From: Nitrospirota bacterium
GTDB taxonomy: Bacteria > Nitrospirota > Thermodesulfovibrionia > SZUA-242
Length of the DNA stretch: 64,000 bases
Reading direction: 5' to 3'
Assembly: GCA_016212095.1 (NCBI GenBank)
Contig: JACRHH010000027.1
Coordinates: 23,880-87,879, forward strand
Shown here: positions 43,901 to 60,664 of the stretch, one piece after another
Layout: each line of letters starts with the position of its first letter
Numbering within the stretch: position 1 is the stretch's first letter
The notes under the pieces: model-generated
Told to the model about the DNA's origin: nothing
Databases searched by the model: none
What the model saw: the letters and a program-made list of their open reading frames with translations, nothing else
Translations under genes and position numbers: made by a program

Positions 43901-44440
43901 GGCCGTTTTGCCTCGGCAACCACATCGGGACTGGCCGAGATGGACGACAAGGCCGATGTTTCCGTTGGCGGAATAGTGGCGTCGGTCAAGCCGATTGTCA
44001 CCAAAAAGGGCGACAAGATGGCCGCGTTCGTGCTGGAAGACCTGACCGGCAGCACCGAGGTTATTGTTTTTCCGGGTATCTATGCTGAAACTTCGGCATT
44101 GATAGGCTCGGATGCGCCGATTCTGGTGACCGGCCACCTCGACAAGTCTGAAACCGGCCACAAAATAGTTGCGCGAAGCGTGACTCCTCTTGGCAACGCG
44201 AAAGCGTCGAGGGTTGAAATCCGGCTCAATGCCTCTGTATTATCCCAGTCCGATCTCGAACGGCTGAAGGATGTTGTAGGCAAACATGCCGGATCGTGTC
44301 CGCTGTCGATCCGTCTTACCTCGCCGGGCATCTGGGAAACGGTTGTCACAGCCGCCTCAGGCGTGAAACCGACCATGGATATGGTAAAGGATGTGGAAGG
44401 GATTTTGGGGCGCAACACGGTTATATTGAGCAATGGCTAA
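41000..44440 (+). CDS. dnaE: DNA polymerase III subunit alpha
   Basis: PHP domain [16 protein letters not shown]..., palm/fingers ([17 protein letters not shown]), OB fold. 1146 aa. Confidence 0.97.
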
Positions 44441-45401
44441 TTATCTTGAATTTGAAAAACCGATTGCCGATCTTGAACGGCAGATAGCCGAACTGCGGCG
44501 TTTCTCGCACGGCCAGGGAGTTGACCTCACAAAGGAAGTCGCGAGGCTGGAAAAGAAGCTGCACGAGGTGCGCAAGTCTGTTTACGAGAAGCTGACGCCG
44601 TGGCAGAAGACGCTTGCGGCACGCCATCCGGATCGTCCTTACACTCTCGATTACATCAAGCAGATGATGACCGGATTCCACGAGCTGCACGGCGACCGGC
44701 GGTTTGGCGACGACGCGGCTATTGTGTCGGGATTCGCGCGTATCGACGATATGCCGGTTGCCGTGATCGGCCATCAGAAGGGGCGCGACACGAAGGACAG
44801 AATCGCTCGCAACTTCGGTCAGGCGCACCCGGAAGGCTATCGCAAGGCGCTTCGGATAATGAAACTTGCCGAAAAATTCGGACGTCCGGTGATCACTTTC
44901 ATCGACACGCCAGGCGCGTATCCCGGAATCGGCGCCGAGGAGCGGGGGCAGGCCGAGGCTATCGCGTACAACCTGCATCAGATGGCGATGCTCCGCACTC
45001 CGGTTGTGATACTGGTGATCGGTGAGGGCGGAAGCGGCGGCGCGCTTGCCCTTGGCGTGGGCGACAGAGTGTACATGCTGGAGCATTCGGTATATTCGGT
45101 GATATCTCCGGAAGGATGCGCCGCGATACTCTGGAAAAAGGACAAAAGCGGACTTTCCCTGGATGATTTTTCGAAGGCAGCGGATGTCCTGAAGCTGACG
45201 CCCGGCGATCTCAAGCGGTTTGGGGTTATCGACGAGGTTATCAAGGAGCCGCCGGGCGGAATGCATACTGCCGGGAAGGCCATGTTCGACTCGGTCAAAA
45301 GCGTTATCAAGACCGCGCTTGATGAACTTGCCGCTCTGCCCGCCGACGAGCTGGTCGCAAAGAGGTATTCCCGAATCAGGGTGCTGGGTTCGATCGGCTG
45401 A
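44433..45401 (+). CDS. accA: Acetyl-CoA carboxylase carboxyltransferase subunit alpha
   Basis: [11 protein letters not shown]...[25 protein letters not shown]...[10 protein letters not shown]. Confidence 0.95.
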
Positions 45402-45618
45402 ATGCCAGTTGTATTTGCCGAAATCCGTCAATGTTTATGAAAAACTTCTTCTCAGTTGCTCTAATTTCCCGATTTCATTGGGAATATCGATAAATAGTGC
45501 TTGACATTTCAGCGCCGTGCCTGTAATTTAACCCGTACCTTTGCCCTTTGGAGCCTGTCCGGTCTGGTTTAGCCGCCGGATAGTCTGCCAGTAAATATCC
45601 ATTTCGAGAGGTTTTTAA

Positions 45619-46761
45619 GTGCAGAAAAGAGGCGGCAAGGAAGGTTACGACGCGCAAGGCAAGAACAAGGTGGCCGTGCCGCCGCTTTCCGATGAATTCC
45701 CCGGTCTTGAATCCATGACAATCAGGATGGTCTACTATCAAAAGGGAGACAATCCGGTGCTGATGACGCGCACGCTTCATGTGTATCCGGAGAGCGATCC
45801 GGCGTTTCTGTTCACCCCATGCCTGATTCATGATTGCGAGGGGGGGAGTTTCGAGCTTGCGCCGATTGTGTACGAGCTTCTGAGGAATGGCGGAAGTTCC
45901 GTCTCCGGGCAGTTGTCATGTGTCGGGAGCACAAACAAGGATATTCCGCCGGATCATGCAAGCATGGATTATGCCGTTGAAGTTGTGTACAAATCCATGA
46001 CAAAACCGGAGCCGCCGGTTGAAACGAAACCGGCTTTGAGAAAAAAGATTGCTTCCGGCAAAGAGGTTATCCCGGTTGCCGAACCGGCAAGGAAAGCTGT
46101 TGTTCAGGAACCTGTAACGGTAATCAAGCCGGTGGAGCCGGTTAAGAAAATCGTGGCGAAAGCGCCTAAAAAGCCGGTTGAGCATGTAAAGCCGGTTGAG
46201 GATGCAAAGTCAATTGCGCCGGCAAAGCCTGCTGTTGCATCCCCTAAAAAGGCTCTTGCCGTTTCGGCTCCAGCGGCAAAAGCTTCAGCACCGCAGGTGA
46301 AACCAGCACCGCCGCTGCCTAAAAAGGTTGCGAAGGCTGTATCCGTACCTGTTGAGGTGGCTGCTCCATCCGTGAAAAAAATCAAGCCGTCTGTGGAGCC
46401 GGTTTCAAACAAAGGGACGAAGACGGCTCAGGCCAGTAAACCGGCCAATAAACCGGCCAATAATGCTGCGCCTGCCGTTTCGAAGCCTGCCGCCACCAAA
46501 CCTGTCGCCGCTAAATCTGCCTCCGGCAAACCTGATGTCAGGAAAACATTGATCCAGCCGACAAAGGCGGGCAAAAACAGTCCTGTTGCGATTCAACAAG
46601 CTCCGGCGAAGCAAACTCCGTCAACAACATCGAAACCCAGACCTGTTGCCGGTGTTAAGGCTGTTCCGGTGGCTGCAAAGCCAGTAGCGGCAAAAAAAGC
46701 TCCGGTAGTTGCCACAAAGGCGGTCTTGGGGAAACCTGCCGGAAAAAACAAAAAAAAGTAA
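45619..46761 (+). CDS. Hypothetical protein: about 130-aa N-terminal domain plus about 250-aa Lys/Ala/Pro-rich (histone-H1/AlgP-like) tail
   Basis: The tail is made of KPV/KPA/AKK repeats (...KPVEPVKKIVAKAPKKPVEHVKPVE...AAKPVAAKKAPVVATKA...KNKKK). GTG 45619 is uncertain; ATG 45715 is the alternative. Confidence 0.6.
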   Translation: MQKRGGKEGYDAQGKNKVAVPPLSDEFPGLESMTIRMVYYQKGDNPVLMTRTLHVYPESDPAFLFTPCLIHDCEGGSFELAPIVYELLRNGGSSVSGQLSCVGSTNKDIPPDHASMDYAVEVVYKSMTKPEPPVETKPALRKKIASGKEVIPVAEPARKAVVQEPVTVIKPVEPVKKIVAKAPKKPVEHVKPVEDAKSIAPAKPAVASPKKALAVSAPAAKASAPQVKPAPPLPKKVAKAVSVPVEVAAPSVKKIKPSVEPVSNKGTKTAQASKPANKPANNAAPAVSKPAATKPVAAKSASGKPDVRKTLIQPTKAGKNSPVAIQQAPAKQTPSTTSKPRPVAGVKAVPVAAKPVAAKKAPVVATKAVLGKPAGKNKKK

Positions 46762-46836
46762 TCGATATTGCGTTGTTCGGGCCATGGCCCGTTCTGCCAT
46801 GATTCAAGCATATTACAATGGAGGCGGTATAAGTTA

Positions 46837-48153
46837 ATGAGTTCACAGAGTGTTGCATTGCAGGATTACAAGGTTGCTGACATCGGCCTTGCGGAATGGG
46901 GAAGAAAAGAGTTGACGATTGCCGAGACCGAGATGCCGGGCCTCATGGCCCTGCGCGAGGAGTACGGCAAGTCGAAGCCGCTGAGCGGCGCGCGCATTGC
47001 CGGTTGTCTGCATATGACAATCCAGACCGCGGCGCTCATAGAAACGCTTGTTGAGCTTGGCGCCGAGGTTCGCTGGTCTTCGTGCAATATATTTTCCACA
47101 CAGGATCATGCGGCGTCGGCTATCGCGGCTGCCGGAATTCCGGTGTTCGCATGGAAGGGCGAGACACTTGAGGAATATGACTGGTGCATCGAGCAGACCC
47201 TGTTCTGGCCAGACGGCAAGCCCCTGAACATGATACTGGACGACGGCGGAGACCTCACGCAGATCATCCACGACAAATATCCGCATCTTCTCAAAGACAT
47301 ACGCGGCATTTCGGAGGAGACAACTACCGGCGTTCACCGCCTCTATGAAATGATGCAGAAGGGAACCCTCGGCTGCCCGGCGTTCAATGTGAACGATTCG
47401 GTAACCAAGTCGAAATTCGACAACCTTTACGGCTGCCGCGAGTCTCTGCTTGACGGCATCAAGCGCGCAACCGACGTGATGATTGCCGGCAAGATCGCCG
47501 TCGTCGCGGCATACGGGGATGTGGGCAAGGGATGCTGCCAGTCGCTTCGCGGGCAGGGCGCTCGCGTGCTTGTCACCGAGATCGACCCCATATGCGCGCT
47601 TCAGGCCGCGATGGAGGGCTACGAGGTTGTCACGATGGAGGACGCCGCGCCCATCGCCGATCTGTTCATCACCGCCAGCGGCTGCCGGGACGTCATTCGC
47701 CGCGAGCATATGGATGTGATGAAGCATCAGGCGATTATCTGCAACATCGGCCATTTCTACATTGAGATCGACGTTGCCTCGGTCTTCGACGATCCGAATC
47801 TCCGCAAGGTGAACATCAAGCCTCAGGTCGATCAGGTTATCTGGCCGGATGGCAGGACGATCACCATTCTTGCCGAAGGACGGCTTGTGAATCTTGGCTG
47901 CGCAACCGGACATCCGTCGTTCGTCATGTCCAACAGCTTCACCAATCAGGTGATGGCGCAGATGGAGCTTTGGAACAACTCAGACAAATACGAGAATAAG
48001 GTCTATGTGTTGCCGAAGCTGCTTGACGAAAAGGTTGCCCGGCTGCACCTGAAGAAACTGGGAGTGAGGCTAACAACGCTTACCGACGCGCAGGCCGAAT
48101 ACCTCGGCATTGCCAAATCAGGCCCGTACAAGCCGGAGTATTACCGGTATTAA
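46837..48153 (+). CDS. ahcY: Adenosylhomocysteinase
   Basis: [25 protein letters not shown]...GYGDVGKG...NIGHF..EID. GGAGG upstream of ATG 46837. Confidence 0.95.
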
Positions 48154-48166
48154 CAGATAACACAGG

Positions 48167-48200
48167 CAACAGCCCGCGCGGTCTGCGGGCTGTTGCATTT
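48167..48200 (+). terminator. Stem-loop terminator after ahcY
   Basis: 11-bp stem caacagcccgc / gcgggctgttg with a 7-nt loop, followed by cattt (weak U-tract). Confidence 0.6.
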
Positions 48201-48294
48201 GCAAAACACAGCCTGTTTGTGATATAAAACACGGCTTCTCCTTGCCTGTTCTCCCGGAATGGGCTTAATATCCAGAAGGAGGTTACCGCCAAGC

Positions 48295-48696
48295 ATGGCG
48301 AACCACTACGAATCCCTCATTATTCTCAAGGCAAACCTCAACGACGAAGAAATCAAGGCTTCGATCGACAAACTGAAGACCGTTATCGCAAATAACGGCG
48401 GCAATATCATCAAGGAAGAGAACTGGGGAACCAAGGAACTTTCCTATGTGATCAAAAAACAGATCAGGGGACGTTACTTTCTGCTCGTTTTCACGGCTGA
48501 ACCTTCCGTTGTGGGCAATTATGAATCCACCTGCAACGTGATGGAAAACATGCTCAAATACGTTGTCATCCGGCTCGACAAGGCACGGATTGACGCTTAC
48601 GAGAAGAAGGCGGCGCAGGCTGCGGAGGCTGCCAAGCCCAAGGCTGAAGCGGCGGCGGAAGAAGCCGCCGGGGAAGCCGCTGTCGAGCAGGCCTGA
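48295..48696 (+). CDS. rpsF: 30S ribosomal protein S6 (with Ala/Glu-rich C-terminal tail)
   Basis: [19 protein letters not shown]...[15 protein letters not shown]...GRYFLL. AGGAGG upstream. Confidence 0.95.
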
Positions 48697-48701
48697 CGGT
48701 T

Positions 48702-49124
48702 ATGTATAACAAGGTCATTCTCGTCGGCAATCTGGTTCGCGATCCAGAAACCCGCTTCACGCCCCAAGGCACGCAGGTTGCAACATTCAGCATCGCCGTA
48801 AACCGCATTTACAAGGTCGGCGACGAGACGAAGGAATAAGTGTCGTACTTCGACATCGTTGTTTTTGGGAAACAGGCGGAGATCACAAGCCAGTATCTGA
48901 GCAAGGGCAGTTCCGTGCTTGTGGACGGACGCCTCAATCAGCGCCGATGGGACGACAAGGACACCGGACAGAAGCGTTCGAAGGTTGAGATAGTGGCGGA
49001 AGTCGTGCGTTTCATGTCTAAAAAAGGTCAGACGCAGGGCGGCTCGCATGGAGCGTCGGAGCCGGAATACAGCGATTCGGATTTCACGCCGCGTGAAGTT
49101 ACCGATGACGAAGTTCCGTTCTGA
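48702..49124 (+). pseudogene. ssb: Single-stranded DNA-binding protein interrupted by an in-frame TAA (48837-48839)
   Basis: [80 protein letters not shown]...DDEVPF. Both halves are in the same frame (48702 and 48840 are both divisible by 3). Confidence 0.85.
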
Positions 49125-49190
49125 CGCCCGTTTATTGAATAATTTCAGATCAACAGCTTTTTATAGCGAAAGGAGTTTTCAGAAATAATC

Positions 49191-49418
49191 ATGGTTCAGC
49201 AGAAACGATTTCACAGGAAAAAGTTTTGCCGGTTCTGCGCGGAAAAGACGCCGTTCATAGATTACAAGGATTTTCGTCTGCTCAGGGGCTTCGTGACTGA
49301 GAGGGGCAAAATCATGCCGCAGAGGCTTACAGGCACATGCGCCGGACATCAGCGTGAGCTTTGCGCCTCGATAAAGCTTGCCCGCACGATGGCGCTTCTT
49401 CCGTTCATCGAGAAGTAA
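49191..49418 (+). CDS. rpsR: 30S ribosomal protein S18
   Basis: ...[62 protein letters not shown]. Confidence 0.95.
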
Positions 49419-49423
49419 TAGCC

Positions 49424-49705
49424 ATGCGTCTGCCTCGTGCATGGATTCCGATGATCTCCCGCGCAATCGTCGAATCGATTGTGAAGAGCGACGCTGCAAC
49501 GCTCAAGGCCGACAAGGCCGCCGTGACGGGCGTTGTGAATGAGATCGTGCTGAACGAACTCATGGTGGAGGATCGGCTGAACGAGGAAGTGCGCGAGATA
49601 TTGAAGAAATTCGAGGCGGATATTGAAAAGGGCCGCCTCGATTACAAACAGTTGTTCGACCTCACCAAAAAGAAGCTCGTCCGCGAAAGGAATGTAATCC
49701 TGTGA
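49424..49705 (+). CDS. DUF507-family protein
   Basis: MRLPRAWIPMISRAIVESI...EVREILKKFEADIEKGRLDYKQLFDLTKKKL. Paired with the next gene, as is typical for DUF507. Confidence 0.7.
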   Translation: MRLPRAWIPMISRAIVESIVKSDAATLKADKAAVTGVVNEIVLNELMVEDRLNEEVREILKKFEADIEKGRLDYKQLFDLTKKKLVRERNVIL

Positions 49706-49980
49706 GATTGAGCGACGACAAAATCTCCCATCTAACCCACACGGTTTTCACCGGATTGAAGTCGAAAAGCCTGATCGTTCCCAAACGGTCTGAACCGGAT
49801 GTCCGCAAGGCGATAAGGCTTGCCATCAACGAATCGGTTCATCTGTTTGACGAGATAGACGAAAAGGTTCGCCGCAAGCTCGAATCATACTCAAGAAAAA
49901 TGATCGAGGGCACTGCCGAGTGGAACATCCTCTATGAGAAGTTCATCATCGAGGAGATGAACAAGCTGGGGCTGGAATAA
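49702..49980 (+). CDS. DUF507-family protein (second copy)
   Basis: RLSDDKISHLTHTVFTGL...KVRRKLESYSRKMIEGTAEWNILYEKFIIEE. The GTG start overlaps the upstream stop (GTGA). Confidence 0.65.
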   Translation: MRLSDDKISHLTHTVFTGLKSKSLIVPKRSEPDVRKAIRLAINESVHLFDEIDEKVRRKLESYSRKMIEGTAEWNILYEKFIIEEMNKLGLE

Positions 49981-50160
49981 GCAGTTTTTTAATTGATTTA
50001 CCCTGTTTCTCCGCGTTATACTCCTTCGGGCGGTGGCGTGGGGAATGTTGTAACTCTTCGATAATCCGCAAAATATAGCGCTGTACCCTCTCGTCATTTA
50101 AATTCTCGGCATCAGTCGTTTCGTTTTTGTTGCAGCAGCATCACCTTCAGGAGGATGGGG

Positions 50161-51096
50161 ATGGAAGGCATCAGTTACGGATCGTATGAGTTCACGCTTG
50201 CGGCGCGCGAGCGGCTGGTTCTGCCCGCGTACAAGGGATCGACCTTGCGCGGCGGCTTCGGCCATGCCTTCAGGCGCGTTGTATGCGCTCCGCGAAAACC
50301 TGTCTGCGACGGCTGTTTCCTTAAGGGAAGCTGCGTCTATTCTTACGTCTTTGAAACCCCGCCTCCGTCCGGCTCCTCGATGATGCGCAAATACGAGGCC
50401 GCGCCGCATCCGTTCGTGATCGAACCGTCGGTTGACAGGCGAAGGCAGTACGAGCCGGGGCAGGAGTTGACATTCAACCTTTTACTGATTGGCCGGGCTG
50501 TTGAATATCTTGCGTATTTCATATACGCGTTCTCGGAGCTTGGCGAAATAGGCATCGGCAAGAAACTGGGCAAATTCGAGCTTCGCTCGGTGACAAGCGG
50601 CGGCATTATGGTTTACGACGCAGAAACGCGGCAGGTTCGGAATGCGGAGCCGCGAAAGCTGACGCTGGATCTGGCGGCAGCGCCGGAAATAGTATCCGCG
50701 CCGATGCACCTTTCAGTCGATTTCCTCACGCCCACCCGAATCTTCTACAACAAACAGCTTGCCGCAACACCTGAATTTCATGTGCTGATTCGCGCAATCC
50801 TGCGCCGGATGTCGCTTTTGCACTACTTCCACTGCGGCGGCGATCCGTCGGGCTGGGATTTCCGGGGGATCATCGAACGGGCCGGTGCGGTTGAGATGAA
50901 GAGAAACGGCACGAAATGGCACGACTGGGAGCGATACTCGTCGCGTCAGGATACCAGGATGACGCTTGGCGGATTTATGGGCGATGTTGAATACGAGGGC
51001 GACATTGCGCCGTTTCTGCCGCTGATAAGGGCGGGCGAGGCGCTGCATGTGGGCAAGGGGACGGGGTTTGGGCTGGGGAGGTTTGGGGTTGGATGA
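50161..51096 (+). CDS. cas6: CRISPR pre-crRNA endoribonuclease Cas6 (Cys-cluster subtype)
   Basis: ...GSTLRGGFGHAFRRVVCAPRKPVCDGCFLKGSCVYSYVFE... and the C-terminal glycine-rich loop HVGKGTGFGLGRF. AGGAGG 6 nt upstream of ATG 50161. Confidence 0.85.
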   Translation: MEGISYGSYEFTLAARERLVLPAYKGSTLRGGFGHAFRRVVCAPRKPVCDGCFLKGSCVYSYVFETPPPSGSSMMRKYEAAPHPFVIEPSVDRRRQYEPGQELTFNLLLIGRAVEYLAYFIYAFSELGEIGIGKKLGKFELRSVTSGGIMVYDAETRQVRNAEPRKLTLDLAAAPEIVSAPMHLSVDFLTPTRIFYNKQLAATPEFHVLIRAILRRMSLLHYFHCGGDPSGWDFRGIIERAGAVEMKRNGTKWHDWERYSSRQDTRMTLGGFMGDVEYEGDIAPFLPLIRAGEALHVGKGTGFGLGRFGVG

Positions 51097-51107
51097 ACCG
51101 CTTATGG

Positions 51108-51368
51108 TTAATAGACGTGTTTCCGATGTTTTGCCGTAAGGATATGGACGGCATGGCTTGTCTTGTCAACTTCATAAATGATTCGGTAATCCCCGACACG
51201 AAGGGAATATTCCCCGGAGTGATTGCCCACAAGCGGCTTGCCATGAAATGGATTATCGGCAAGCGACTCGATTCTGGCCAAAATACGGCTGAAAAGCCGC
51301 CGGTCGGCAACATGCAACTCTTCGAGATCGCTTTGCGCTTCTTTCGCAAGCCTGATCTCGAACGTCAT
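51108..51368 (-). CDS. relE: RelE/ParE-family toxin
   Basis: ...NPFHGKPLVGNHSGEYSLRVGDYRIIYEVDKTSHAVHILTAKHRKHVY. Overlaps the antitoxin gene by 4 bp. Confidence 0.85.
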   Translation of the reverse strand: MTFEIRLAKEAQSDLEELHVADRRLFSRILARIESLADNPFHGKPLVGNHSGEYSLRVGDYRIIYEVDKTSHAVHILTAKHRKHVY

Positions 51369-51637
51369 TTAACGCCAACCCGCGCCTTGAATTCCTTGAG
51401 CGAAACCGTTTCGCCCATTTTAACCTGCGCCTTAGCGCGGGCAACAGCATCTCGTTCTTCAATGCTGGAAAGCAGGTCGAGGGTTTCCAGCAGGCCCGCA
51501 AATTCGTCGGAGCTGAGGATGACGGCTTTCTCGACGCCGTTTTTTGTGACGGCAAACCGGTCGTATCTTTCATCGACATCCTTGATGATGGCGGACAGGC
51601 TTTTTTTTGCCTCCGCAAGGGTGATGGTTCGGGTCAT
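51365..51637 (-). CDS. Phd/YefM-family antitoxin
   Basis: MTRTITLAEAKKSLSAIIKDVDERYDRFAVTKNGVEKAVILSSDEFAGLLETLDLL. Confidence 0.85.
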   Translation of the reverse strand: MTRTITLAEAKKSLSAIIKDVDERYDRFAVTKNGVEKAVILSSDEFAGLLETLDLLSSIEERDAVARAKAQVKMGETVSLKEFKARVGVK

Positions 51638-51783
51638 TAATCGTCTCCTTTTGCTGAAAGTTATGACCATAATTATAGGCTATATGGCGCGATATTGGAA
51701 AAACTTGCCGCCGGTCATCACATCAAGAACAAACACCTATGCCAATGGATCGTTGCCGTGGCGGCCCATGAATTGGAACCGCC

Positions 51784-51845
51784 GGATACGATGGCGACAT
51801 CGCGCCGTGTCTGCCGCTGATAAGGGGGAAGGTATGGGGTTGAAG
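51784..51845 (+). pseudogene. cas6: Remnant of a cas6 3' end
   Basis: 51784-51826 matches cas6 50989-51031 at 39/43 nt. It translates to DGDIAPCLPLIRGKVWG*, compared with cas6 EGDIAPFLPLIRAGEALHVGKGTGFG. Confidence 0.75.
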
Positions 51846-51894
51846 GCTGAGGATGCAGCGTTGAAAACTGACTGATAATACAAGGGGGAAGCGC

Positions 51895-52617
51895 ATGAAA
51901 AGTTGGCAAAGATGGGGCTTGGGAGTGCTTGTAATTATTCTGTTAGGAGGGTTATCAGTTTATGTTGGCTCACTGATACCTGATGGAATGCTCAAAAAAA
52001 TCGAAAATGCCGGCATTATTCTGGGCTATGCTTTCACAATCATTCCAATCGGTTTTGCACTCGTTGCCTGGTTTTCCAAAAAACAGCTTCGCAGTTTTTT
52101 TCACAGCAACTATTTTACGGGGCTTGGAACACCTTTCCCGCTTGGAAGCAAGCAGATTGATGGCCTGCTGATTCCTGTCAGCCGGGAAGAAGTTCCCAAG
52201 TGGCTGCTTTGTCATCTTCGGCCAAAGCATGTTGCTTTTATCTACACAGTTAAGACCGCTGAGATCGTTAAAAAACTTATTGATGAATTTTCCAAGGATA
52301 TCAAGTTCTACCAGATTGTATCCGGTTCGCCAAGCGGGGAAGATGTAGTTGATCCTTATGATCTGCCGGGCATAAAAACGATGGCGGCGAAATGGATACG
52401 GCGCTTGGAAGCCGAAGGCTTGAGCTTGGACACGATTTATGCTGATACGACAGGCGGCACGGTTCCAATGTCGCTTGGGGTTTTTCAAGCTGCGGAGGAA
52501 AGCGGCATTTCGAGCATATACGTAATCGGCAAACACGAAGGCGGGCGTATTCTCAAACCGGAGGTGTCAGATGAGGGGAAGCCAATTCTTATCAGCGATA
52601 GAGGGGAGGGTAAATGA
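51895..52617 (+). CDS. Two-TM membrane protein with CARF-like cytoplasmic domain (candidate type III ancillary effector)
   Basis: Hydrophobic helices at about residues 7-28 and 39-60. Rossmann-like strand/helix alternation and the IYADTTGGTVPMSLG motif. The stop overlaps the cmr1 ATG (ATGA). Confidence 0.6.
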   Translation: MKSWQRWGLGVLVIILLGGLSVYVGSLIPDGMLKKIENAGIILGYAFTIIPIGFALVAWFSKKQLRSFFHSNYFTGLGTPFPLGSKQIDGLLIPVSREEVPKWLLCHLRPKHVAFIYTVKTAEIVKKLIDEFSKDIKFYQIVSGSPSGEDVVDPYDLPGIKTMAAKWIRRLEAEGLSLDTIYADTTGGTVPMSLGVFQAAEESGISSIYVIGKHEGGRILKPEVSDEGKPILISDRGEGK

Positions 52618-53846
52618 TGTCACAACCAACCGTAATTGAGGCTGAATACAGCATCGTCACGCCAATGTTTCTGGGTGATGCGAAACAAGAGGCTACCGAG
52701 ATAAGGCCTCCTTCGATCAAAGGCGCACTCCGGTTCTGGTGGCGAGCGCTTAACTGGAGTCGAATGTTGGCGCAAAACGGGAATAACGTAACTGAAGCGT
52801 TAAAGACACTCCATAGCGAAGAAGGTCGGTTGTTCGGTCAGGCTGGCGATGAAGACCGTGGTGGGCAGGGGTGTTTTTTGATGAGTGTTACGTCCATCGG
52901 CATTACCCTGCGTAGCAAGGAGCAACTTAACGGTAACGACTCGCCAGCACCACTTGGCAAGTGGCGCCCCTATCTGGTTGGCCTCGGCCTTGCGAGTTAT
53001 AACAAAGAGGAAAAGAAGTCGAAGTACAACCGTAGCGCAATCACAAGCGGTAAATTCAAGGTTCGAGTTCGTTCTCGGCCTGAAACCACTCTGGCTGACG
53101 TCAAGTCCATTGAAGAAAGCCTGCTGCTATTCGGCTTGCTTGGAGGTTTAGGCAGCCGCACACGGCGCGGACTTGGTTCGGTTTCTATTACGAGTCTTTC
53201 CGGCGGCAAGCTGTCTGCGCCTAGCGGCATCGAGGAATGGAAAGCGGCGATTCAGAAACTTACAGGAACACCCATAACCGCACCCGAACCGCCGTTTTCC
53301 GCATTCTCGTCAGTAACCCGCATGGATATGTCTCTAAAAGGCAAAAACGCATGGAACTTGCTGGAGAAAACCGCAAGTGAAATGATGCGTTACCGTTCTT
53401 GGGGGCAGGACAGGAATAACACCGGAACACACAAAGTTAATGGCATTGAACTGTTTGTGGATGATCATGCAATCATGCTTAACGCGATTGCAAACGGAAC
53501 TCCGCCGACAGTGCTTCCAGATCGTATCGTGTTCGGACTGCCTCATAATTATTTTTTCTCTTCGATAACCGGTGCTGAAAAAATGAAAAAAGCCGAGATT
53601 GCACCAGATTCAGAAGGGCGTACCCGCCGGGCATCACCACTGTTCATCCACATCCACAAGTTTAAGGATAACGATTTTGCAGTAATTCAAACGCTGTTTC
53701 AATCCATGTTTCTTTGCCCATCGGATTATGTCGCTGTAAAAGCGGAGAAGCTCCGCCCCACACACCGGCTCATTCCATCGGTGGATTGGGGGCATATCCG
53801 GTGCTATCTCGACCGCTTTGCGGACAGAGAGGTGGTGTTGCCATGA
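52614..53846 (+). CDS. cmr1: Type III-B RAMP protein Cmr1
   Basis: ...YSIVTPMFLGDAKQEATEIRPPSIKGALRFWWRAL... and a second RAMP half with GLLGGLGSRTRRGLGS. Confidence 0.85.
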   Translation: MMSQPTVIEAEYSIVTPMFLGDAKQEATEIRPPSIKGALRFWWRALNWSRMLAQNGNNVTEALKTLHSEEGRLFGQAGDEDRGGQGCFLMSVTSIGITLRSKEQLNGNDSPAPLGKWRPYLVGLGLASYNKEEKKSKYNRSAITSGKFKVRVRSRPETTLADVKSIEESLLLFGLLGGLGSRTRRGLGSVSITSLSGGKLSAPSGIEEWKAAIQKLTGTPITAPEPPFSAFSSVTRMDMSLKGKNAWNLLEKTASEMMRYRSWGQDRNNTGTHKVNGIELFVDDHAIMLNAIANGTPPTVLPDRIVFGLPHNYFFSSITGAEKMKKAEIAPDSEGRTRRASPLFIHIHKFKDNDFAVIQTLFQSMFLCPSDYVAVKAEKLRPTHRLIPSVDWGHIRCYLDRFADREVVLP

Positions 53847-55765
53847 AATACCTGCACTTCACCATCGGCCCGGTTCAGGGATTTGTGGCACAGGCGCGCC
53901 GGACGCGAGATTTCTGGGCCGGGTCTTTTATCCTGTCTTGGCTGTCCGGCATCGCCATGAAGTCGGTTGAAAAGAATGACGGCAAAGTCATTTTCCCTTT
54001 AGTTGCTTCAAGTTATCTGAATTGGCTGGAAGAAATAAAGGGAACAGGAATGAAGCCACGGCAGGGTGCGGCTCCGAATCGTTTTATGGCCGAGATACCG
54101 GATGCAGGTTTCGATCCGGCATTAGTTGAGCAAAGTGTTAGATCTGCCTGGACTGAGTTGGCGGAAAAAGTCTGGCAAAACGATTTGAGCAGCATGGGAA
54201 TGACCTCTAACCAGCGAAAGATTTGGGATGAGCAGGTAAACAAATTCTGGGAAATTTCATGGGCGATAACGGACACCCGCTCAGAATCCAGCATCCTTGA
54301 TCGACGGAAAAACTGGCGGACTTCATTCCCGCCTGAACAGGGCGGCGTCAAGTGCATGGTGATGGACGCTTGGCAGGAGCTTTCCGGCAGCGAAAGGCCG
54401 GGTAAGCAAGTGAGTGATTTCTGGCTAAAAATACGGACTGATGGCCAAAACGGCATGAAAACCGATTTGCGAGATGGCGAGCATCTTTGCGCTATCGCGT
54501 TTATAAAGCGCAGGTTTGCCCGCTGCTTTCATAAAGTATCGGCAACAATGCCTGGCGGTTGGCGCATAAGCGGTTGGAATGTTTCCCCAAACGTTCCATC
54601 GGTGGTCTACATGGCAGCCGCTCACTGGATTGCCGACACCATCAAGGCTGGCAAGCCGGAAATGATCAAAAGATTTCATGATGCCGCATTCATGCTCACC
54701 CGCGAGCATGGAGAAACCAATTCCAACATACGGTGTATTGAAGATGCCCTGCATGGCAAAGATGATCCGACAAGACAATTTGCCGCGCTGGACGGCTCAG
54801 TGTTCTTTGAGACAATGCTTTCCAGTCCAAACATGTATCCGGACGCTGACGAAACAACGGTTAGCGCTACGTTGGCACGTCTCAATGAACTCATAAAAGA
54901 AACCAGCCTTGAGCCTCCAAGTCCATTTTACGCAATGCTGCTTATGGACGGCGATTCGCTTGGCAAGCATATGGGCGATGAGGAAAAGCAGGTGCCGATC
55001 AGTAAGGCGTTGGAAATATTCACCCGCGATGCGTCGAAGATAGTTCAGAAGAACAGCGGCTTCCTGATTTATGCCGGTGGTGACGACGTGCTGGCTATTC
55101 TGCCGGTGGAGGACGCCTTGAAGTGCGCCGCAGAGCTTCAACAGCATTACAATAACTGCTTTGCCGGTAGCGGGGTTTCCTCAACACTTTCCGGTGCTAT
55201 CGAGTTTGCACACATCAAAATGCCTCTCACACGTGTGCTGCGTGACGCGCACTCCCTGCTTGACGATATTGCCAAGGATGAGCGCGGACGCGATGCCGTG
55301 GCTGTCCGCGTCTGGAAACCCGGCGGAAAGGCGGTGGAGTGGGCGATGCCGTGGGAAAAGGCATTTGCCTCCGATGGCAAGGTTGAAATCCAGAAAATCG
55401 CCGACGAGTTCAGAGCGCAAGACGAAGATGCCAGATACAGCAATAAGTTCTTTTTCAAAATACGGGAACTTGTTGGGGTGATTGGGCAGGGAAAATTGCT
55501 GAGTTACGATGACATGGTAAGTCTGATGGCTGCCGAGTATCTCCATTCCGGCATAAACGAAGGCAGGGATCCCAAAATATCGAGGGGCGAGGCGGAAATT
55601 CTCACCAAAAGGCTTCTGGATCAATGCCAGCAGTTGAGAAGGATTGTCACGGATAAACCGGGTGGCCGAACCGATGTTAGCTTTGACTCGCTGCCGGGCG
55701 CGATGTTTCGAGCCGATGGCGCGTTGCTGGTGCGCTTTCTGGCGCAAAAGGGGGTGGAACTATGA
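53843..55765 (+). CDS. cas10: Cas10/Cmr2, short form without HD domain, cyclase GGDD intact
   Basis: MKYLHFTIGPVQGFVAQARRTRDFWAGSFILSWL (Cmr2 core N-terminus) ... FLIYAGGDDVLAILP. 640 aa. ATGA overlaps at both ends. Confidence 0.9.
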   Translation: MKYLHFTIGPVQGFVAQARRTRDFWAGSFILSWLSGIAMKSVEKNDGKVIFPLVASSYLNWLEEIKGTGMKPRQGAAPNRFMAEIPDAGFDPALVEQSVRSAWTELAEKVWQNDLSSMGMTSNQRKIWDEQVNKFWEISWAITDTRSESSILDRRKNWRTSFPPEQGGVKCMVMDAWQELSGSERPGKQVSDFWLKIRTDGQNGMKTDLRDGEHLCAIAFIKRRFARCFHKVSATMPGGWRISGWNVSPNVPSVVYMAAAHWIADTIKAGKPEMIKRFHDAAFMLTREHGETNSNIRCIEDALHGKDDPTRQFAALDGSVFFETMLSSPNMYPDADETTVSATLARLNELIKETSLEPPSPFYAMLLMDGDSLGKHMGDEEKQVPISKALEIFTRDASKIVQKNSGFLIYAGGDDVLAILPVEDALKCAAELQQHYNNCFAGSGVSSTLSGAIEFAHIKMPLTRVLRDAHSLLDDIAKDERGRDAVAVRVWKPGGKAVEWAMPWEKAFASDGKVEIQKIADEFRAQDEDARYSNKFFFKIRELVGVIGQGKLLSYDDMVSLMAAEYLHSGINEGRDPKISRGEAEILTKRLLDQCQQLRRIVTDKPGGRTDVSFDSLPGAMFRADGALLVRFLAQKGVEL

Positions 55766-56937
55766 CGAGCAGAACATTGCGTTTATCGGCTCTTGATACA
55801 TGGTTTTTCCGCGAATCCCGTCCGCATGGTTCAGTAGGCGGCACGGAGCTTGACAGCGTTTTCCCGCCGCCGCCACGAACCGTGGCCGGAGCAGTGCGAA
55901 CCATGATCGGAAATCATGCAGGTGCGGACTGGGATGATTTCAAAAAATGCAAAGAAACACCGTATTTACGAAACGAAATTGATCTAAGGGCTGAAATCGG
56001 TTGGGGCGATGACACCGGCAAACTCGCCATCAATGGGCCATGGCTCACTCTTAATGGCTCACGACTTTATCCCGCCCCCAGCTTTCTGGTGAAATCCGAG
56101 AACTCTGGCGTGGTGAGACTTGCAATAGGCCCGTCAGCGGTTTGTGATCTCGGTTGCCTTCACCTGCCGATTCTCGGAACTGGTTCCTCAGTAAAACCTA
56201 TTGAAAATGCCTGGCTTACACATGAAGCATTTAACCGTGTGCTTGGCGGTGGTGTGCCGGACATTGCTGATATTCTGTGCGAATCGCAACTTGTCGCAAT
56301 AGAACCGCGACTTGGCATAGCCCGCAATAACGCGGTGCGAACGGCTGAAAACGGAATGCTTTATCAAGCACGGCACATCCGTCCAGATGCTAAATTTGCT
56401 TTGGAAGTGGATATTTCCGGAATAGCTGAGCGTTTGCATCCTTCAGGTGGCGCAACACGTTTCGGTGGCGAAGGCCGTCTGGCTCTGGTTGAATCATTGC
56501 CAACCTCTCCGTTGTTTCCGCAACCGCCGGAGCCACTTGCTGATACCAAAGGCGTTATTTTGATTTTGCTGACGCCTTCCGACACAGGCGGCTGCTGGCT
56601 GCCAAACTCCAGTTTCAAGCTGATTGAAGAAGACGGCGTCTGCTATTTTGACGGAAAGATTAATGGAATCGGTCTTCGAATCGTATCGGCTGTTTTGGGG
56701 AAGGCGATTCGGGAGGGTGGCTGGGATTTGGCGCAGCAGAAACCGCGCCCGGCGCGAAGCCTTATTCCTGCTGGCAGTGCTTGGTACTGCACCGTAGCTG
56801 GCGGCGACATCAAGTCCGCCATTCAGGCGCTTCATAACTCTCAAATTGGTTTGGAAACATCGCTTGGCCGGGGGCATTTGGCTGTCGGCCTTTGGAATAA
56901 CTCGGAATATCCTGATACCTCAAGGAGGGGAATATGA
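55762..56937 (+). CDS. cmr3: Type III-B Cmr3
   Basis: LRLSALDTWFFRESRPHG.....SVFPPPPRTVAGAVRTMIG, the typical Cmr3 N-terminus. Confidence 0.85.
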   Translation: MTSRTLRLSALDTWFFRESRPHGSVGGTELDSVFPPPPRTVAGAVRTMIGNHAGADWDDFKKCKETPYLRNEIDLRAEIGWGDDTGKLAINGPWLTLNGSRLYPAPSFLVKSENSGVVRLAIGPSAVCDLGCLHLPILGTGSSVKPIENAWLTHEAFNRVLGGGVPDIADILCESQLVAIEPRLGIARNNAVRTAENGMLYQARHIRPDAKFALEVDISGIAERLHPSGGATRFGGEGRLALVESLPTSPLFPQPPEPLADTKGVILILLTPSDTGGCWLPNSSFKLIEEDGVCYFDGKINGIGLRIVSAVLGKAIREGGWDLAQQKPRPARSLIPAGSAWYCTVAGGDIKSAIQALHNSQIGLETSLGRGHLAVGLWNNSEYPDTSRRGI

Positions 56938-57875
56938 ACAACGCAATTTTAGGTTTACTTGCTGAAACATCCATCCATGCCGGAAGCGGCCAGTCCGTGG
57001 GCGGCGTTGATCTTCCGATTCAGCGCGAAGGACATAATAATTGGCCATGTGTCTTTGGCTCGGCAGTGAAAGGCGCGCTTCGGGCGCGTGCGGAAGACAT
57101 TAAAATGCCTGACATCGACATAGCCTTTGGGCCACGGCCTGCTTCCGGTCAGGCCTCCGATCATGCGGGGGCGCTCGCGGTTGGCGACGCCCGGCTTCTG
57201 CTTCTTCCGGTTCGTTCGCTCACCGGCTATTTCAAGTGGGTAACATGCCCTGCGGCGTTGACACGGCTGAAGCGGGATGCATTCAGACTTGGTCTCGACA
57301 TCGCAATGCCGGATTCCCCGGATGTTCCAGCAGACGACACGGCAATTGTTCCAGATGGGGCGGCCAGCGGCGGCATGTTTCTTGAGGAATACCGATTTAA
57401 TGCGATTCCACAAAATCTTGCGGACGTCATTACATCTCTTGCCAAGTTGATGAAAGGTGAGGACTCAACGGAACGCCTAACTTGCCAACTTGTAATCGTC
57501 AGCGACGATCAATTTTCTTTCTTCGCTCAATATGCAACGCCCGTAGCCGCCCATGTCCGGATCGATAACGGAAAAAAGACCGTGGCAAAAGGCGCGCTTT
57601 GGTACGAAGAGACTTTACCACCCGAAACCCTTATGTACGTTGGACTTGGTGCGTTCCCTTCTAGGAGAAACGGTTCCGCTATTTCCGGAAAGGAAATTCT
57701 TGATTCAACGGTTCAGAGCTTGTTTGGAGCGCACCCTTACCTGCAACTTGGCGGAAATGAGACTGTAGGAATGGGCTGGTGTCGAGTTGCGGTAAATCGT
57801 ACATCCATTGTGCCAAGCGGCGGCCAAGTGGCGGTTACCGAAAGCCAAGCCGTAGTTGCGGCACAGGAGGTTTGA
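56934..57875 (+). CDS. cmr4: Type III-B Cmr4 (backbone RAMP, target-RNA cleavage subunit)
   Basis: LGLLAETSIHAGSGQSVGGVDLPIQRE...FGSAVKGALRA...LQLGGNETVGMGW. Confidence 0.9.
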   Translation: MNNAILGLLAETSIHAGSGQSVGGVDLPIQREGHNNWPCVFGSAVKGALRARAEDIKMPDIDIAFGPRPASGQASDHAGALAVGDARLLLLPVRSLTGYFKWVTCPAALTRLKRDAFRLGLDIAMPDSPDVPADDTAIVPDGAASGGMFLEEYRFNAIPQNLADVITSLAKLMKGEDSTERLTCQLVIVSDDQFSFFAQYATPVAAHVRIDNGKKTVAKGALWYEETLPPETLMYVGLGAFPSRRNGSAISGKEILDSTVQSLFGAHPYLQLGGNETVGMGWCRVAVNRTSIVPSGGQVAVTESQAVVAAQEV

Positions 57876-57876
57876 T

Positions 57877-58296
57877 ATGCAGACAATTCAGCAAAAACGG
57901 GCCGCAGCCGCGCTTGCTGCGGTGAGAGAAGCTTCATCAGAACTCTCCGGCGACGACAGGAAAAAATATAAAAGCTACGCGAGCCAGTTTCCGGCCATGA
58001 TCCGAATGAATGGTCTTGGCCCTGCGGCAGCATTCTTCCGAGGCAAGGATGAGTTATACAAGAGTTTGTACGATACGCTTGGTTCATGGCTTAGAAGTGA
58101 AAACGGCCCCTATTACGGGGTTGACGATCTTATGGACGGAATCACAACGCGCAACCAGAACGAATACCGCATGGCTCAGGTTGAAGCGGTTGTCTTCATG
58201 GAGTGGGTCAAGAAACTCGCAAATGCCTTCATGGAAGAGCCAGTAAACAGCACTGTTCAGGGAGCAGGTGAAGCCGTCACAGAGGATGCATCATGA
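57877..58296 (+). CDS. cmr5: Type III-B Cmr5 (small subunit)
   Basis: ...YKSYASQFPAMIRMNGLGPAAAFF...; 139 aa; position between cmr4 and cmr6. Confidence 0.8.
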   Translation: MQTIQQKRAAAALAAVREASSELSGDDRKKYKSYASQFPAMIRMNGLGPAAAFFRGKDELYKSLYDTLGSWLRSENGPYYGVDDLMDGITTRNQNEYRMAQVEAVVFMEWVKKLANAFMEEPVNSTVQGAGEAVTEDAS

Positions 58297-59411
58297 AAAC
58301 TCCTCTATATTGTGCTCACGATGCTCCACTATCCAAACCTCAAGATGCTCATTCCGGTCTGTGGTTCGACAGGTTTTTTAATAGGTTTACAGATAGTTGG
58401 GAGACAGAAAAAGAAGGTGCGAAGCTGAAATGGATTGTGAAAACAGTCGAGGGCTCATGCTGCGACATGGCGGCAGTAAAATCTTTTTCGCTTAGACAAT
58501 ATGAGATTGCAGCTTCCCTTGGCGGTGAAAGCCGGGCGTTTACAACTTCATGGCGTTTTGCCTCCGGGCTTGGACTGCCGCATCCGGTCGAGAATGGTTT
58601 TGCTTGGCATCCGACACTTGGAACGCCATATCTGACGGGAGCGGCGGTAAAAGGTCTTGTTCGAGCATGGGTGGAGGTTTGGGAGCCAAGTTTTGATGAT
58701 CGAATCGAACGAGATAATCGATTGAAAAGCTGGTTTGGTGAGATCGATCAGTCCGGAGGACTGATTTTCTTCGACGCAATTCCTGTCGCCCCTCCCGCGC
58801 TGTCTCCCGATGTTATGACCCCTCACATGGGAAAGTGGTATGAATTGGGCGGCGAAATCGGTGTAAATCCGGAAAACGAACCGAAAAGTCTACCGGCGGA
58901 CTGGCATGATCCGAACCCTATTCCATTTTTAACCGTGAAGAATGGGACGTTCCTGTTCAGCATTGCGCCAAGAAATCAAAAGTTCACAGATGATGTGCCG
59001 CTTGCAATGGACTCGCTCAAGCAGGCTCTCGAATGGCTAGGGGCTGGCGCGAAAACTGCGGCTGGATATGGACGAATGGAGCCAGATGACGTTGCCAGAA
59101 ATTCGCTGAAGGTTGAAGCCGACAAGCGGATGAAAGACCGCTTGGAAAGAGAGAGCGTTGCCAGAATGTCGCCTCTTGAGCGTGAGTTGCATGAGCTTGC
59201 AAAAAATAATTCGCAAGATACAGAAGTATTTTTTCTGAAAGCGCTTGAAGACGGGCGTTGGAATGGTGACAATGCCCGCGTTGTGGCCGAAAAGATTCAA
59301 GCCATGATGCAGGAAAAGGACAAGTGGAAACCGGTATGTAACAGCAAGGAGGAGAAAAAGCTTAAATTGCATAGACGTACATTGGCAGTAATGAGGTATC
59401 TTGGGCGGTGA
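58293..59411 (+). CDS. cmr6: Type III-B Cmr6 with about 110-aa helical C-terminal extension
   Basis: ...SGLGLPHPVENGFAWHPTLGTPYLTGAAVKGLVRAW...GGLIFFDA...GAKTAAGYGRM, then a 110-aa charged extension. Confidence 0.85.
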   Translation: MKTPLYCAHDAPLSKPQDAHSGLWFDRFFNRFTDSWETEKEGAKLKWIVKTVEGSCCDMAAVKSFSLRQYEIAASLGGESRAFTTSWRFASGLGLPHPVENGFAWHPTLGTPYLTGAAVKGLVRAWVEVWEPSFDDRIERDNRLKSWFGEIDQSGGLIFFDAIPVAPPALSPDVMTPHMGKWYELGGEIGVNPENEPKSLPADWHDPNPIPFLTVKNGTFLFSIAPRNQKFTDDVPLAMDSLKQALEWLGAGAKTAAGYGRMEPDDVARNSLKVEADKRMKDRLERESVARMSPLERELHELAKNNSQDTEVFFLKALEDGRWNGDNARVVAEKIQAMMQEKDKWKPVCNSKEEKKLKLHRRTLAVMRYLGR

Positions 59412-59420
59412 GGCTCCGGC

Positions 59421-59492
59421 ATGACAACGTATTTTGTTACACGCCATCCCGGCGCGCGTGAGTGGGCGGCTGAGGAGGGCGTTATCGTGGAT
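59421..59492 (+). pseudogene. csx16: csx16 5' stub (about 24 codons), fused in frame to a transposase fragment
   Basis: MTTYFVTRHPGAREWAAEEGVIVD matches my recollection of the Csx16 (VVA1548-family) N-terminus. The rest of the gene is absent. Confidence 0.6.
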
Positions 59493-59780
59493 GAGCAGGT
59501 GGAGCTTTTCTTCAAGTGGATCAAGCAGAACCTGCGGATAAAAAGCTTTTACGGAACATCGGAAAACGCCGTCAAGACACAGATATGGATTGCGGTGTCG
59601 GTTTATGTGCTGGTGGCCATCATGAAAAAACGGCTGAATATCGAGGCAAGCCTCTACACAATTCTACAGGTGCTGAGCGTAACCGCTTTAGAAAAAATGC
59701 CGTTAATTCGACTACTTGCAAAACAGGATTACAGAACAGAGATGGGCGATTATCGTAACTCATTGTTTTTATTCGATTAA
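59493..59780 (+). mobile_element. IS4/IS5-type DDE transposase C-terminal fragment (IS remnant)
   Basis: ...VELFFKWIKQNLRIKSFYGTSENAVKTQIWIAVSVYVLVAIMKKRL...LYTILQVLS is the conserved C-terminal block of IS4-family transposases. No N-terminal or catalytic part is present. Confidence 0.8.
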
Positions 59781-60030
59781 ACGTTGGGACGCTAGTGATT
59801 TGAACATATAGTGCTGAAACTGCTTGGCCGGTTCAGCGGAGCCGAAAGCGTAACGCTCGATGGTTACAGAAACCCACGGCCACCGGGAAATCGCAGGGTG
59901 TGGGGAACTTCGCGGTTTATGGTTGAACAGATGTATCCGCTTGGATGGGTGAAGGTATCGGTGAATTAAATGCATCGCATTATGAGCGAGTGATAATGGT
60001 GCAGTATAATGCCTGAAGAGGATTGAGGAC

Positions 60031-60393
60031 ATGAAGCGAGATATTACGGATTACATTGCCGACATGTTTGATGCGATGAACAAAGCCCGTCAATTTGTCG
60101 AGGGAATGGATTTTGACTCATTTGCGGCTGACGACAAGACCGTGTACGCGCTGATCCGGGCGCTGGAAGTCATCGGGGAGGCGGCCAAGCGAATACCGGA
60201 CGACGTTCGCGCCCGATTCGCGCATGTTCCATGGAGGGACATGGCCGGAATGCGTGACGTGCTGATTCATGATTATTTCGGAGTGGACGCCGATACCGTA
60301 TGGCGAACAGTTACGGAAAAAATCCCTGAAGTCCTGCGTGATATGGAGACGATTTTGAAGGAGTTGCGCAATGAAGCGAATCGACGAGATTAA
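60031..60393 (+). CDS. hepT: HepT-like (DUF86/HEPN) toxin
   Basis: RX4HXY motif in [14 protein letters not shown]. 120 aa. Confidence 0.85.
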
Positions 60394-60664
60394 GTCTGCT
60401 CTGAAAGCCGAGAAATCCCGTCTTGAGCTGGAATACGGCGTGAGCGAAATAGGTCTTTTTGGTTCAAGAGTCACCGGCATTGCAACCGACGCCAGCGACA
60501 TCGACATTCTTGTTGATTTTCACCGATCAATCGATCTGTTGCGGTTTGTCCACCTGAAAAATGAACTGTCCGACCTGCTTGAATTGCGGGTGGATCTTGT
60601 GATGAAGCGCGCCGTCAAGCCCGAAATCGGCAGGCATATCACGAATGAGGCTGTGTTCATCTGA
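60371..60664 (+). CDS. mntA: MntA-like nucleotidyltransferase antitoxin
   Basis: [23 protein letters not shown] (GSxxxG...DxD). Overlaps hepT by 23 bp. Confidence 0.85.

Follow-up and report, generated by a model that had tools for sequence, protein, structure and literature searches.

What output is available to a type III-B (Cmr) CRISPR system whose Cas10 keeps its cyclase motif and has no HD domain? This question is raised by a locus in a 64-kb stretch of DNA from a Nitrospirota bacterium (GenBank assembly GCA_016212095.1, contig JACRHH010000027.1, positions 23,880 to 87,879), referred to here as the window and numbered from its first base, in which a 240-amino-acid (aa) open reading frame (ORF) with an ATG start, at 51895-52617 (+), lies upstream of cmr1. 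A preliminary description of this DNA had taken the encoded protein, with its two transmembrane (TM) helices and CARF domain, for a candidate membrane effector gated by cyclic oligoadenylate (cOA), and sequence, profile, structure, and neighborhood now agree with that proposal. The same description had been unable to assign the protein to a named family from sequence alone, and this no longer holds, as it is a homolog of Cam1, one of the effector classes that the description itself had listed, over the CARF domain and the second TM helix. We consider it probable that this protein serves the adjacent Cmr system as a Cam1-family effector, acting as a tetrameric, membrane-depolarizing pore gated by cyclic tetra-adenylate (cA4), with the mechanism transferred from characterized members of the family. 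The class of type III CRISPR effectors that act at the membrane is young and has few members so far (Cam1, Csx23, Cap1, and Chp1), and to our knowledge, no full-length Cam1 structure exists.

Identity of the protein

Sequence, profile, and structure comparisons lead to the same family. A phmmer search against all PDB chains returned a sole significant match, Cam1 8t64 (E 2.7e-13), which pairs residues 62-211 of the query with residues 2-142 of the chain, and identity to NhCam1 is about 27-30% over the aligned region. Two PADLOC profiles match nearly end to end: 'CARF8--CARF_TM' (PDLC01946, 6.6e-29, residues 31-217), where the meaning of 'CARF8' is taken from the PADLOC label alone, and 'CARF_2M: CARF, 2 TMs' (PDLC01168, 6.8e-18, residues 28-216). 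The form with two TM helices and a CARF domain is already catalogued in PADLOC, as a profile label with no mechanism attached. An AlphaFold2 (AF2) monomer model based on a 111-sequence alignment has a predicted local distance difference test score of 91.6 and a predicted template modeling score of 0.79, with helices at residues 3-27, 30-60, and 62-70 and, after them, a Rossmann-like domain in which strands and helices alternate. When this model was compared with the PDB by Foldseek, as the preliminary description had advised, the CARF fold was recovered and ranks 1-8 were all Cam1 chains (E down to 4.8e-13, target template modeling score 0.73-0.83), with the CARF domains of Csm6, Can2, Card1, and Cad1 as the next matches and Sso2081 at rank 23 (E 3e-5). 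The operational definition of Cam1 in PMC11229360, a CARF match plus any TM domain, also describes the protein. No Pfam or NCBIfam model reaches its threshold, the sub-threshold matches being CARF_Card1 (19.5 bits against a cutoff of 24.6) and TIGR02710 (29.4 against 83.9), and because these libraries do not detect them, two-helix members are annotated as hypothetical proteins, which is the name given to one homolog at NCBI.

Membrane helices

Hydrophobicity was scored as the best 19-residue Kyte-Doolittle mean with a cutoff of 1.6, and the two maxima, 2.36 (residues 6-31) and 2.13 (residues 38-61), fall on the helices that had been placed earlier at about residues 7-28 and 39-60. The first of these, TM1 (residues ~7-28; 51913-51978, +; AF2 helix 3-27), is absent from characterized Cam1 and poorly conserved in sequence. 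The second, TM2 (residues ~39-60; 52009-52074, +; AF2 helix 30-60), is homologous to the single pore-forming helix of Cam1. This assignment of TM2 as the homolog of the Cam1 pore helix, and of TM1 as an N-terminal addition, follows from an hhalign comparison of profiles for the two-helix and one-helix homologs, in which columns 34-250 of the former align with columns 11-213 of the latter (probability 100%, E 2.6e-53) across the TM helix and the motif L-D-x-x-G-I-x-L-G, with TM1 unmatched. Alignments of one-helix proteins produced by phmmer likewise begin at about residue 36 of the query.

The conserved motif, [L/I]-D/E-x-A-G-I-x-L-G, reads I36-E37-N-A-G40-I-I-L-G44 in this protein and contains a G40xxxG44 helix-packing pattern. 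It is opened by E37 (codon 52003-52005, +), the equivalent of the pore-lining residue D17 of NhCam1, which is functionally required there (PMC10808066). The D17 column is D in 71% of the two-helix and 73% of the one-helix homologs, so the E found here is a conservative but rare substitution. TM2 is followed by linker L1 (residues 61-88; 52075-52158, +), which aligns with NhCam1 residues 42-67 and in the AF2 model starts with a basic juxtamembrane helix at residues 62-70 (KKQLRSFFH). An N-in/C-in hairpin is predicted for the protein, and the flanking net charges of +2 for the N-terminal tail, 0 for the loop, and +3 after TM2 fit this topology.

The layout of TM1 is also signal-like, with a basic n-region (K2 and R6), a hydrophobic core, V24-G25-S26, and then P29, and in the alignment of the two-helix clade, small residues are common at columns 25-26 and P, S, or A at column 29. 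If TM1 were a cleavable signal peptide, as its poor conservation might also suggest, the mature protein would begin near residue 27 with its N terminus outside and would form a four-helix pore, which would restore the topology of characterized Cam1 and leave family and role as proposed. We regard this as unlikely, as a hydrophobic stretch of ~21 residues with a Kyte-Doolittle maximum of 2.36 is long for a cleaved signal peptide, the AF2 model has a continuous helix from residue 3 to 27 that is packed as a hairpin with TM2, and the two-helix effector Cap1 retains an analogous TM1 as its outer ring (bioRxiv 10.1101/2025.11.13.688252).

A two-helix sister clade

Homologs were collected by an exhaustive HMMER search of 1.84 billion protein cluster representatives (a 50%-identity library), which was used instead of a word-indexed homology search that gave 7 relatives. 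It returned 163 cluster representatives at E<=1e-3 and 98 at E<=1e-10, with a best E of 1e-45 and a closest relative that is ~40-41% identical. The 111 representatives that were aligned comprise 66 two-helix proteins (230-280 aa) and 45 one-helix proteins (~195-220 aa), and in a neighbor-joining tree built from the CARF region alone, 63 of the 66 two-helix proteins form one clade; the five 'one-helix' sequences that fall within it are borderline or N-truncated. Since a tree that ignores the membrane region still groups these proteins, the extra helix is an old, clade-defining feature of a near-monophyletic group rather than an artefact of gene calling.

Among GTDB representatives, the two-helix form is found in Thermoanaerobaculia, Marinimicrobia, Thermodesulfovibrionales/Nitrospirota, KSB1, Calditrichota, Desulfobacterota, and Bacteroidota, and it dominates outside Gammaproteobacteria, while the one-helix forms are almost all gammaproteobacterial. 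A scan of viral contigs found no relative and no sign of phage-borne copies. The protein belongs, then, to a recently characterized effector family whose two-helix form is already in defense-system profile libraries and whose sister clade is known from sequence; in the library searched, that clade is at least as diverse as single-helix Cam1 (66 versus 45 aligned representatives).

CARF domain and ligand-binding site

The CARF domain, delimited by the alignments, the AF2 model, and Foldseek, covers residues ~89-236 (52159-52602, +), and the protein ends about 4 residues past it. The alternation of strands and helices that had been read from the sequence at about residues 88-225 is seen in the model, with strands at 90-94, 112-117, 181-184, 206-212, and 228-234 and helices at 99-108, 119-132, 157-173, and 190-203. 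The DTTGGT sequence that had been pointed out as a CARF ligand-site signature forms a loop at residues 184-189 (nucleotides 52444-52461), in which D184, T186, and G188 are each at least 90% conserved among the 111 homologs, and a capping loop, L2, occupies residues 213-227.

Residues were related to NhCam1 through the PDB alignments and the published contacts (PMC10808066). Three hydrogen-bonding residues of NhCam1 are kept, S75 as S96, T97 as T118, and Y180 as Y209, as is the cA4 contact V79 (V100), and in the capping loop, L189 and P192 correspond to I219 and P222, which we count as kept. As judged from these alignments, the ligand site appears largely retained, with changes that are typical of the clade. 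Our best guess for the ligand is cA4, because the locus holds a remnant of csx16, Csx16 is encoded beside Cam1 in 19 of the related loci, and most type III effectors are activated by cA4. Csx16 has been described as a cA4-specific ring nuclease (PMC13148439), and 84% of typed effectors are cA4-activated, with loci tending toward one signal (PMC11229360).

Proposed mechanism and comparison with known effectors

In the mechanism that we propose, binding of target RNA by the Cmr complex would cause Cas10 to make cyclic oligoadenylate, most probably cA4, one molecule of which would be bound by each cytoplasmic CARF dimer and capped by loop L2, whereupon a pre-assembled tetramer would open its pore. 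The inner ring would be built from four TM2 helices, packed against one another through G40xxxG44 and with E37 at the periplasmic mouth of the pore; around it, the four TM1 helices would make up an outer ring, as solved for Cap1. The N-in/C-in topology would differ from the N-out arrangement of single-helix Cam1. The resulting ion flux would depolarize the membrane, and the infected cell would stop growing, a form of abortive infection. The model for this scheme is provided by NhCam1, MvCam1, and gpCam1, for which binding of cA4 per CARF dimer, pre-formed tetramers, an acidic pore, depolarization without lysis, and growth arrest have been described (PMC10808066).

Several points weigh against this reading. 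The ligand, oligomer, and pore are assigned to this protein by transfer from NhCam1, MvCam1, and gpCam1, while the arrangement of the rings draws on a likeness to Cap1 in architecture rather than on TM homology, and the AF2 model is that of a monomer. The pore residue is E and not D, and MvCam1 tolerated a D-to-E change, which gpCam1 did not (PMC10808066). In the ligand site, N76 of NhCam1 is replaced by R97 (R being the majority residue in both clades), T183 by G212, and K160, which is essential in NhCam1, by T189 (a T shared by 68% of the two-helix clade and by 20% of the one-helix clade), and the substitutions in these three columns could mean that ligand affinity or identity differs. The locus itself is in decay, with a cas1 pseudogene, a destroyed csx16, and an insertion sequence (IS) remnant. 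Finally, a simple sigma-70 scan of the 224-bp gap upstream of the gene found no promoter on the + strand, only a divergent phd promoter, although such a scan is uninformative for a Nitrospirota promoter.

The changes at K160, N76, and T183 would also be expected if the effector, though of Cam1 type, opened in response not to cA4 but to another ligand, such as cyclic hexa-adenylate (cA6) or cyclic tri-adenylate (cA3), and the product spectrum of this Cas10 could include such molecules. This alternative seems improbable to us. It would have to accommodate the retention of S96, T118, and Y209 together with I219 and P222 of the capping loop, the occurrence of T at position 189 in part of the one-helix clade as well, the csx16 remnant with its cA4-specific family, the prevalence of cA4 among typed effectors, and isothermal titration calorimetry on NhCam1, which showed no binding of cyclic di-adenylate (cA2), cA3, or cA6 (PMC10808066).

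Returning to the cA4-gated pore, its closest known counterpart is Cam1 itself. The two share a homologous CARF domain with the cA4-contacting S, T, and Y residues, a membrane helix with the conserved motif and an acidic pore residue, a basic juxtamembrane linker, the absence of an enzymatic domain, and a type III locus with a GGDD Cas10. NhCam1 (206 aa), MvCam1, and gpCam1, however, have a single N-terminal, N-out TM helix, in contrast to the two helices and predicted N-in topology of the 240-aa protein, so that a tetramer would contain eight helices here and contains four in Cam1. The present protein also has E in place of D at the pore and T in place of K160, belongs to the separate near-monophyletic clade, and is encoded upstream of cmr1 rather than after the genes of the complex.

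In its membrane architecture, and in architecture only, the protein resembles Cap1, in which an N-in hairpin of two TM helices at the N terminus likewise precedes a cytoplasmic cA4 sensor. Cryo-electron microscopy of Cap1 revealed a tetramer in which TM1 runs outward from the cytosol, the chain turns, and TM2 forms the inner ring with TM1 as the outer one (bioRxiv 10.1101/2025.11.13.688252). The sensors are different, as the CARF-like R(X3)QQ(X10)L sensor of Cap1 binds one cA4 per tetramer and is accompanied by a C-terminal DUF4579; the sequence of the present protein contains no QQ and no extra Pfam domain, and there is no Cap1 entry among the 50 listed fold matches. Csx23 and Chp1 are, like the proposed pore, tetrameric cA4-responsive membrane effectors of type III systems. 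Csx23 carries a non-CARF cA4 sensor on its TM helix, whereas the soluble domain here has the CARF fold, and the 25 PADLOC matches listed are CARF-type profiles throughout, with no Csx23 profile in the list. Chp1 combines membrane and CARF domains with a HAD domain and has a gating mechanism based on lipid fenestration, and neither Pfam nor the model gives a HAD domain here.

A more far-reaching interpretation, which we hold only tentatively and do not take as the expected outcome, is that the two-helix clade embodies a distinct pore design in which eight-helix, Cap1-like rings are driven by a Cam1-type dimeric CARF, with two cA4 per tetramer. With the N terminus inverted, gating or ion selectivity could differ from those of single-helix Cam1, and in this locus, where the protein would be the sole output of a system with an HD-less Cas10 and no Csx16, immunity would amount to a depolarization switch with no encoded off-switch. 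For structural studies, a hairpin of two helices may prove more tractable, and it joins the sensor of Cam1 to a membrane part laid out like that of Cap1. These results leave the accepted logic of type III signaling as it is; their practical use is for annotation and for the choice of a protein to study structurally.

Genomic association of the homologs

Linkage of the homologs to type III loci was assessed for 55 distinct loci, three of them two-helix homologs located by exact sequence and 52 added by a scan of GTDB representative genomes. Neighborhoods, with an available flank of 10 kb or less, were scanned by iterative jackhmmer with the Cmr proteins of the window, a Csx16 search, and a simple CRISPR-array finder; single-sequence phmmer with the same Cmr proteins had missed divergent type III loci, and jackhmmer was used in its place. 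A CRISPR array or a gene for Cas10, a RAMP protein, Cas6, or Csx16 lies close by in at least 42 of the 55 loci, and 7 of the 13 negative loci are contigs under 7.3 kb. Homologs of both clades sit in type III loci, in keeping with the association that the preliminary description had proposed to look for.

In most related loci, the homolog follows cmr6, whereas in the window it precedes cmr1, and the place after cmr6 is taken by the csx16 stump and an IS4 remnant. This variable position among loci supports the modularity of the gene. The strongest matches to the Cmr module by far among the retrieved loci (34-60% identity) occur in a Candidatus Multivoradales locus (L014), where the Cam1-like protein is 34% identical and is encoded after cmr6. 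Two of the three homologs located by exact sequence lie a few kilobases from Cas10/RAMP genes, one of them immediately behind the final RAMP gene in a type III operon.

The third, which is the closest relative (locus L003, protein P0002), has a stop codon that overlaps a 323-aa gene at 2908-3879 (+) with weak Card1-endonuclease/NERD matches, possibly a Can2/Card1-like partner effector, and a superfamily 1 helicase gene lies upstream in the same locus. In a Calditrichota metagenome-assembled genome with a two-helix homolog (L001), the adaptation module has, beside cas1 and cas2, a single gene at 11770-13377 (+) with both Cas6 and reverse-transcriptase (RVT_1) matches.

The csx16 gene occurs near cam1 in 19 loci (L020, L022, L026-L029, L034, L035, L037-L040, L042, L044-L046, L049, L051, and L052), in several of them immediately upstream of cam1. 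These loci are mostly gammaproteobacterial, with none in the clear two-helix set, and aside from the stump in the window, no clear two-helix locus retrieved has csx16.

Operon position and composition

The ORF and the overlap of its end with the start of cmr1 are present exactly as they had been reported: the TGA stop (52615-52617) shares ATGA with the cmr1 start (52614-52616). The same junction recurs at cmr1/cas10, cas10/cmr3, cmr3/cmr4, and cmr5/cmr6, and this repetition along the operon identifies the Cam1-like gene, supported as such by PADLOC, the phmmer search of the PDB, and Foldseek, as the first cistron of a tightly coupled seven-gene cmr operon. A Shine-Dalgarno-like GGGGGA, read from the sequence, is located at 51884-51889 (+), 5 nucleotides 5' of the ATG.

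The gene had been thought to occupy a swappable, AT-shifted slot, on the basis of hand counts of G+C (49/120 in part of the gene and 38/60 in part of ahcY) that are exact. Its G+C content is 46.6%, and its G+C content at third codon positions (GC3) is 0.469, close to that of cmr3 (0.477) and cmr6 (0.464), within a range of 0.46-0.58 for the cmr genes overall as opposed to ~0.7 for core genes and cas6. The further drop in total G+C of the gene is due to its T-rich TM-coding part (41.4% G+C). The AT shift is, then, shared by the entire cmr operon, with the codons of hydrophobic residues adding to it, and marks no special slot; what stands of the earlier idea is the modularity, as indicated by the varying position of the gene among loci.

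Host locus and island

The Cmr complex genes themselves are full-length. Downstream of the Cam1-like gene, cmr1 (52614-53846, +; identified by profile matches, with its start in the ATGA overlap) is followed by cas10/cmr2 (53843-55765, +; Pfam Cmr2_N and Cas10-Cmr2_palm2), whose true start is the ATG at 53843 (MKYLHFTIGPVQGF), and by cmr3, cmr4, cmr5, and cmr6 (55762-59411, +; Pfam and PADLOC). Cas10 lacks the HD domain and has an intact GGDD motif, according to both Pfam and the translation. Upstream lie cas6 (50155-51096, +; Pfam CRISPR_Cas6 8e-20, PADLOC Cas6 7e-109) and, between it and the Cam1-like gene, a gene for a ParE-family toxin (51108-51368, -) and one for a Phd/YefM antitoxin (51365-51670, -, with a likely start at 51637), a pair with a promoter-like site of its own at 51701-51672. 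The composition of cas6 is host-like (G+C 58%, GC3 0.69), in contrast to the lower GC3 of the cmr genes, and the toxin-antitoxin (TA) pair lies between the two, which hints that cas6 and the cmr module may differ in history. A 260-aa ORF on the + strand at 51093-51875 was considered as a second effector and rejected as spurious, as it has no matches and overlies the ParE and Phd genes of the minus strand.

On the other side of the operon, the first ~27 codons of csx16 survive as a stump that reads in frame into what is left of the C-terminal end of an IS4-family transposase (59421-59780, +), and the remainder of csx16 was not found anywhere in the window; the locus appears, from these remains, to have lost its cA4 ring nuclease. 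A regulatory role might be considered, as csx16 has been lost and ring nucleases are known among stand-alone CARF proteins (Crn1/Sso2081), with Sso2081 among the fold matches of our protein. We nonetheless find it very improbable that the protein is a membrane-anchored CARF sponge or ring nuclease that damps cOA signaling. The fold resemblance to Crn1-type proteins is generic, NhCam1 does not cleave cA4 (Supplementary Discussion, PMC10808066), and the pore-helix motif and its acidic residue are conserved in both clades, where a mere anchor would not need them. A regulator, moreover, would leave the system with no output, as Cas10 lacks HD and the window offers no second effector.

It is clear from Pfam, PADLOC, and NCBIfam scans of the ORFs that the 64-kb window holds no other CARF or SAVED gene, so the earlier claim that this protein is the only effector candidate stands within the window; yet the locus also contains the csx16 stump and a type VII TA pair of HepT (a HEPN RNase) and MntA (a nucleotidyltransferase) at 60031-60664 (+), between the cmr operon and the cas1 remnant. 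Baca et al. suggested that a second effector is perhaps needed when Cas10 lacks nuclease activity (PMC10808066), and the locus is an apparent exception to this expectation, with a Cam1-type protein as the sole cOA effector in the window.

The adaptation genes are partly degraded. The cas1 pseudogene (60686-61178, +) consists of two fragments in different frames, corresponding to profile positions 1-63 and ~231-327, with ~170 codons missing, while cas2 (61097-61453) looks intact, and the CRISPR array (61653-62382, +) has 10 identical 37-nucleotide repeats (CAGAGAAACCGAGACTTAACGAATAAAGGATTGAGAC). The locus as a whole is a strain-variable island (window 49980-62400, with the left edge set by a break in synteny). 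A relative (L058/L059) whose AhcY is 97% identical and whose DNA is 82-87% identical is syntenic with window positions 36620-49979, up to one base before the end of the stop codon of the second DUF507 gene (49979), and continues with surA/prmA and no CRISPR genes. The organism of the window is an uncultured member of the Nitrospirota, with an AhcY 85-86% identical to AhcY of Nitrospirota metagenome-assembled genomes. An apparent truncation of leuA at the right border was rejected, as leuA merely runs off the window.

The absence of the island from so close a relative, together with the broken cas1, the csx16 stump beside the IS4 remnant, and the interspersed TA modules, would be consistent with an intact-looking passenger in a decaying and no longer functional CRISPR island. 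We consider this quite unlikely. None of cas6, the Cam1-like gene, and the six cmr genes is truncated, ATGA junctions couple genes of the operon, the ten repeats of the array are identical, and all family-conserved residues of the protein are intact; the loss of adaptation genes, for its part, does not abolish interference.

The other 50 kb of the window contains housekeeping and signal-transduction genes. Within it, a 1726-aa protein at 1579-6759 (-) has five SdrD_B repeats and weak dockerin and CarboxypepD_reg matches, and at 8800-26200 (-) there follows an extended series of genes for hybrid histidine kinases and response regulators, together with CheB/CheR and a MASE3 sensor protein.

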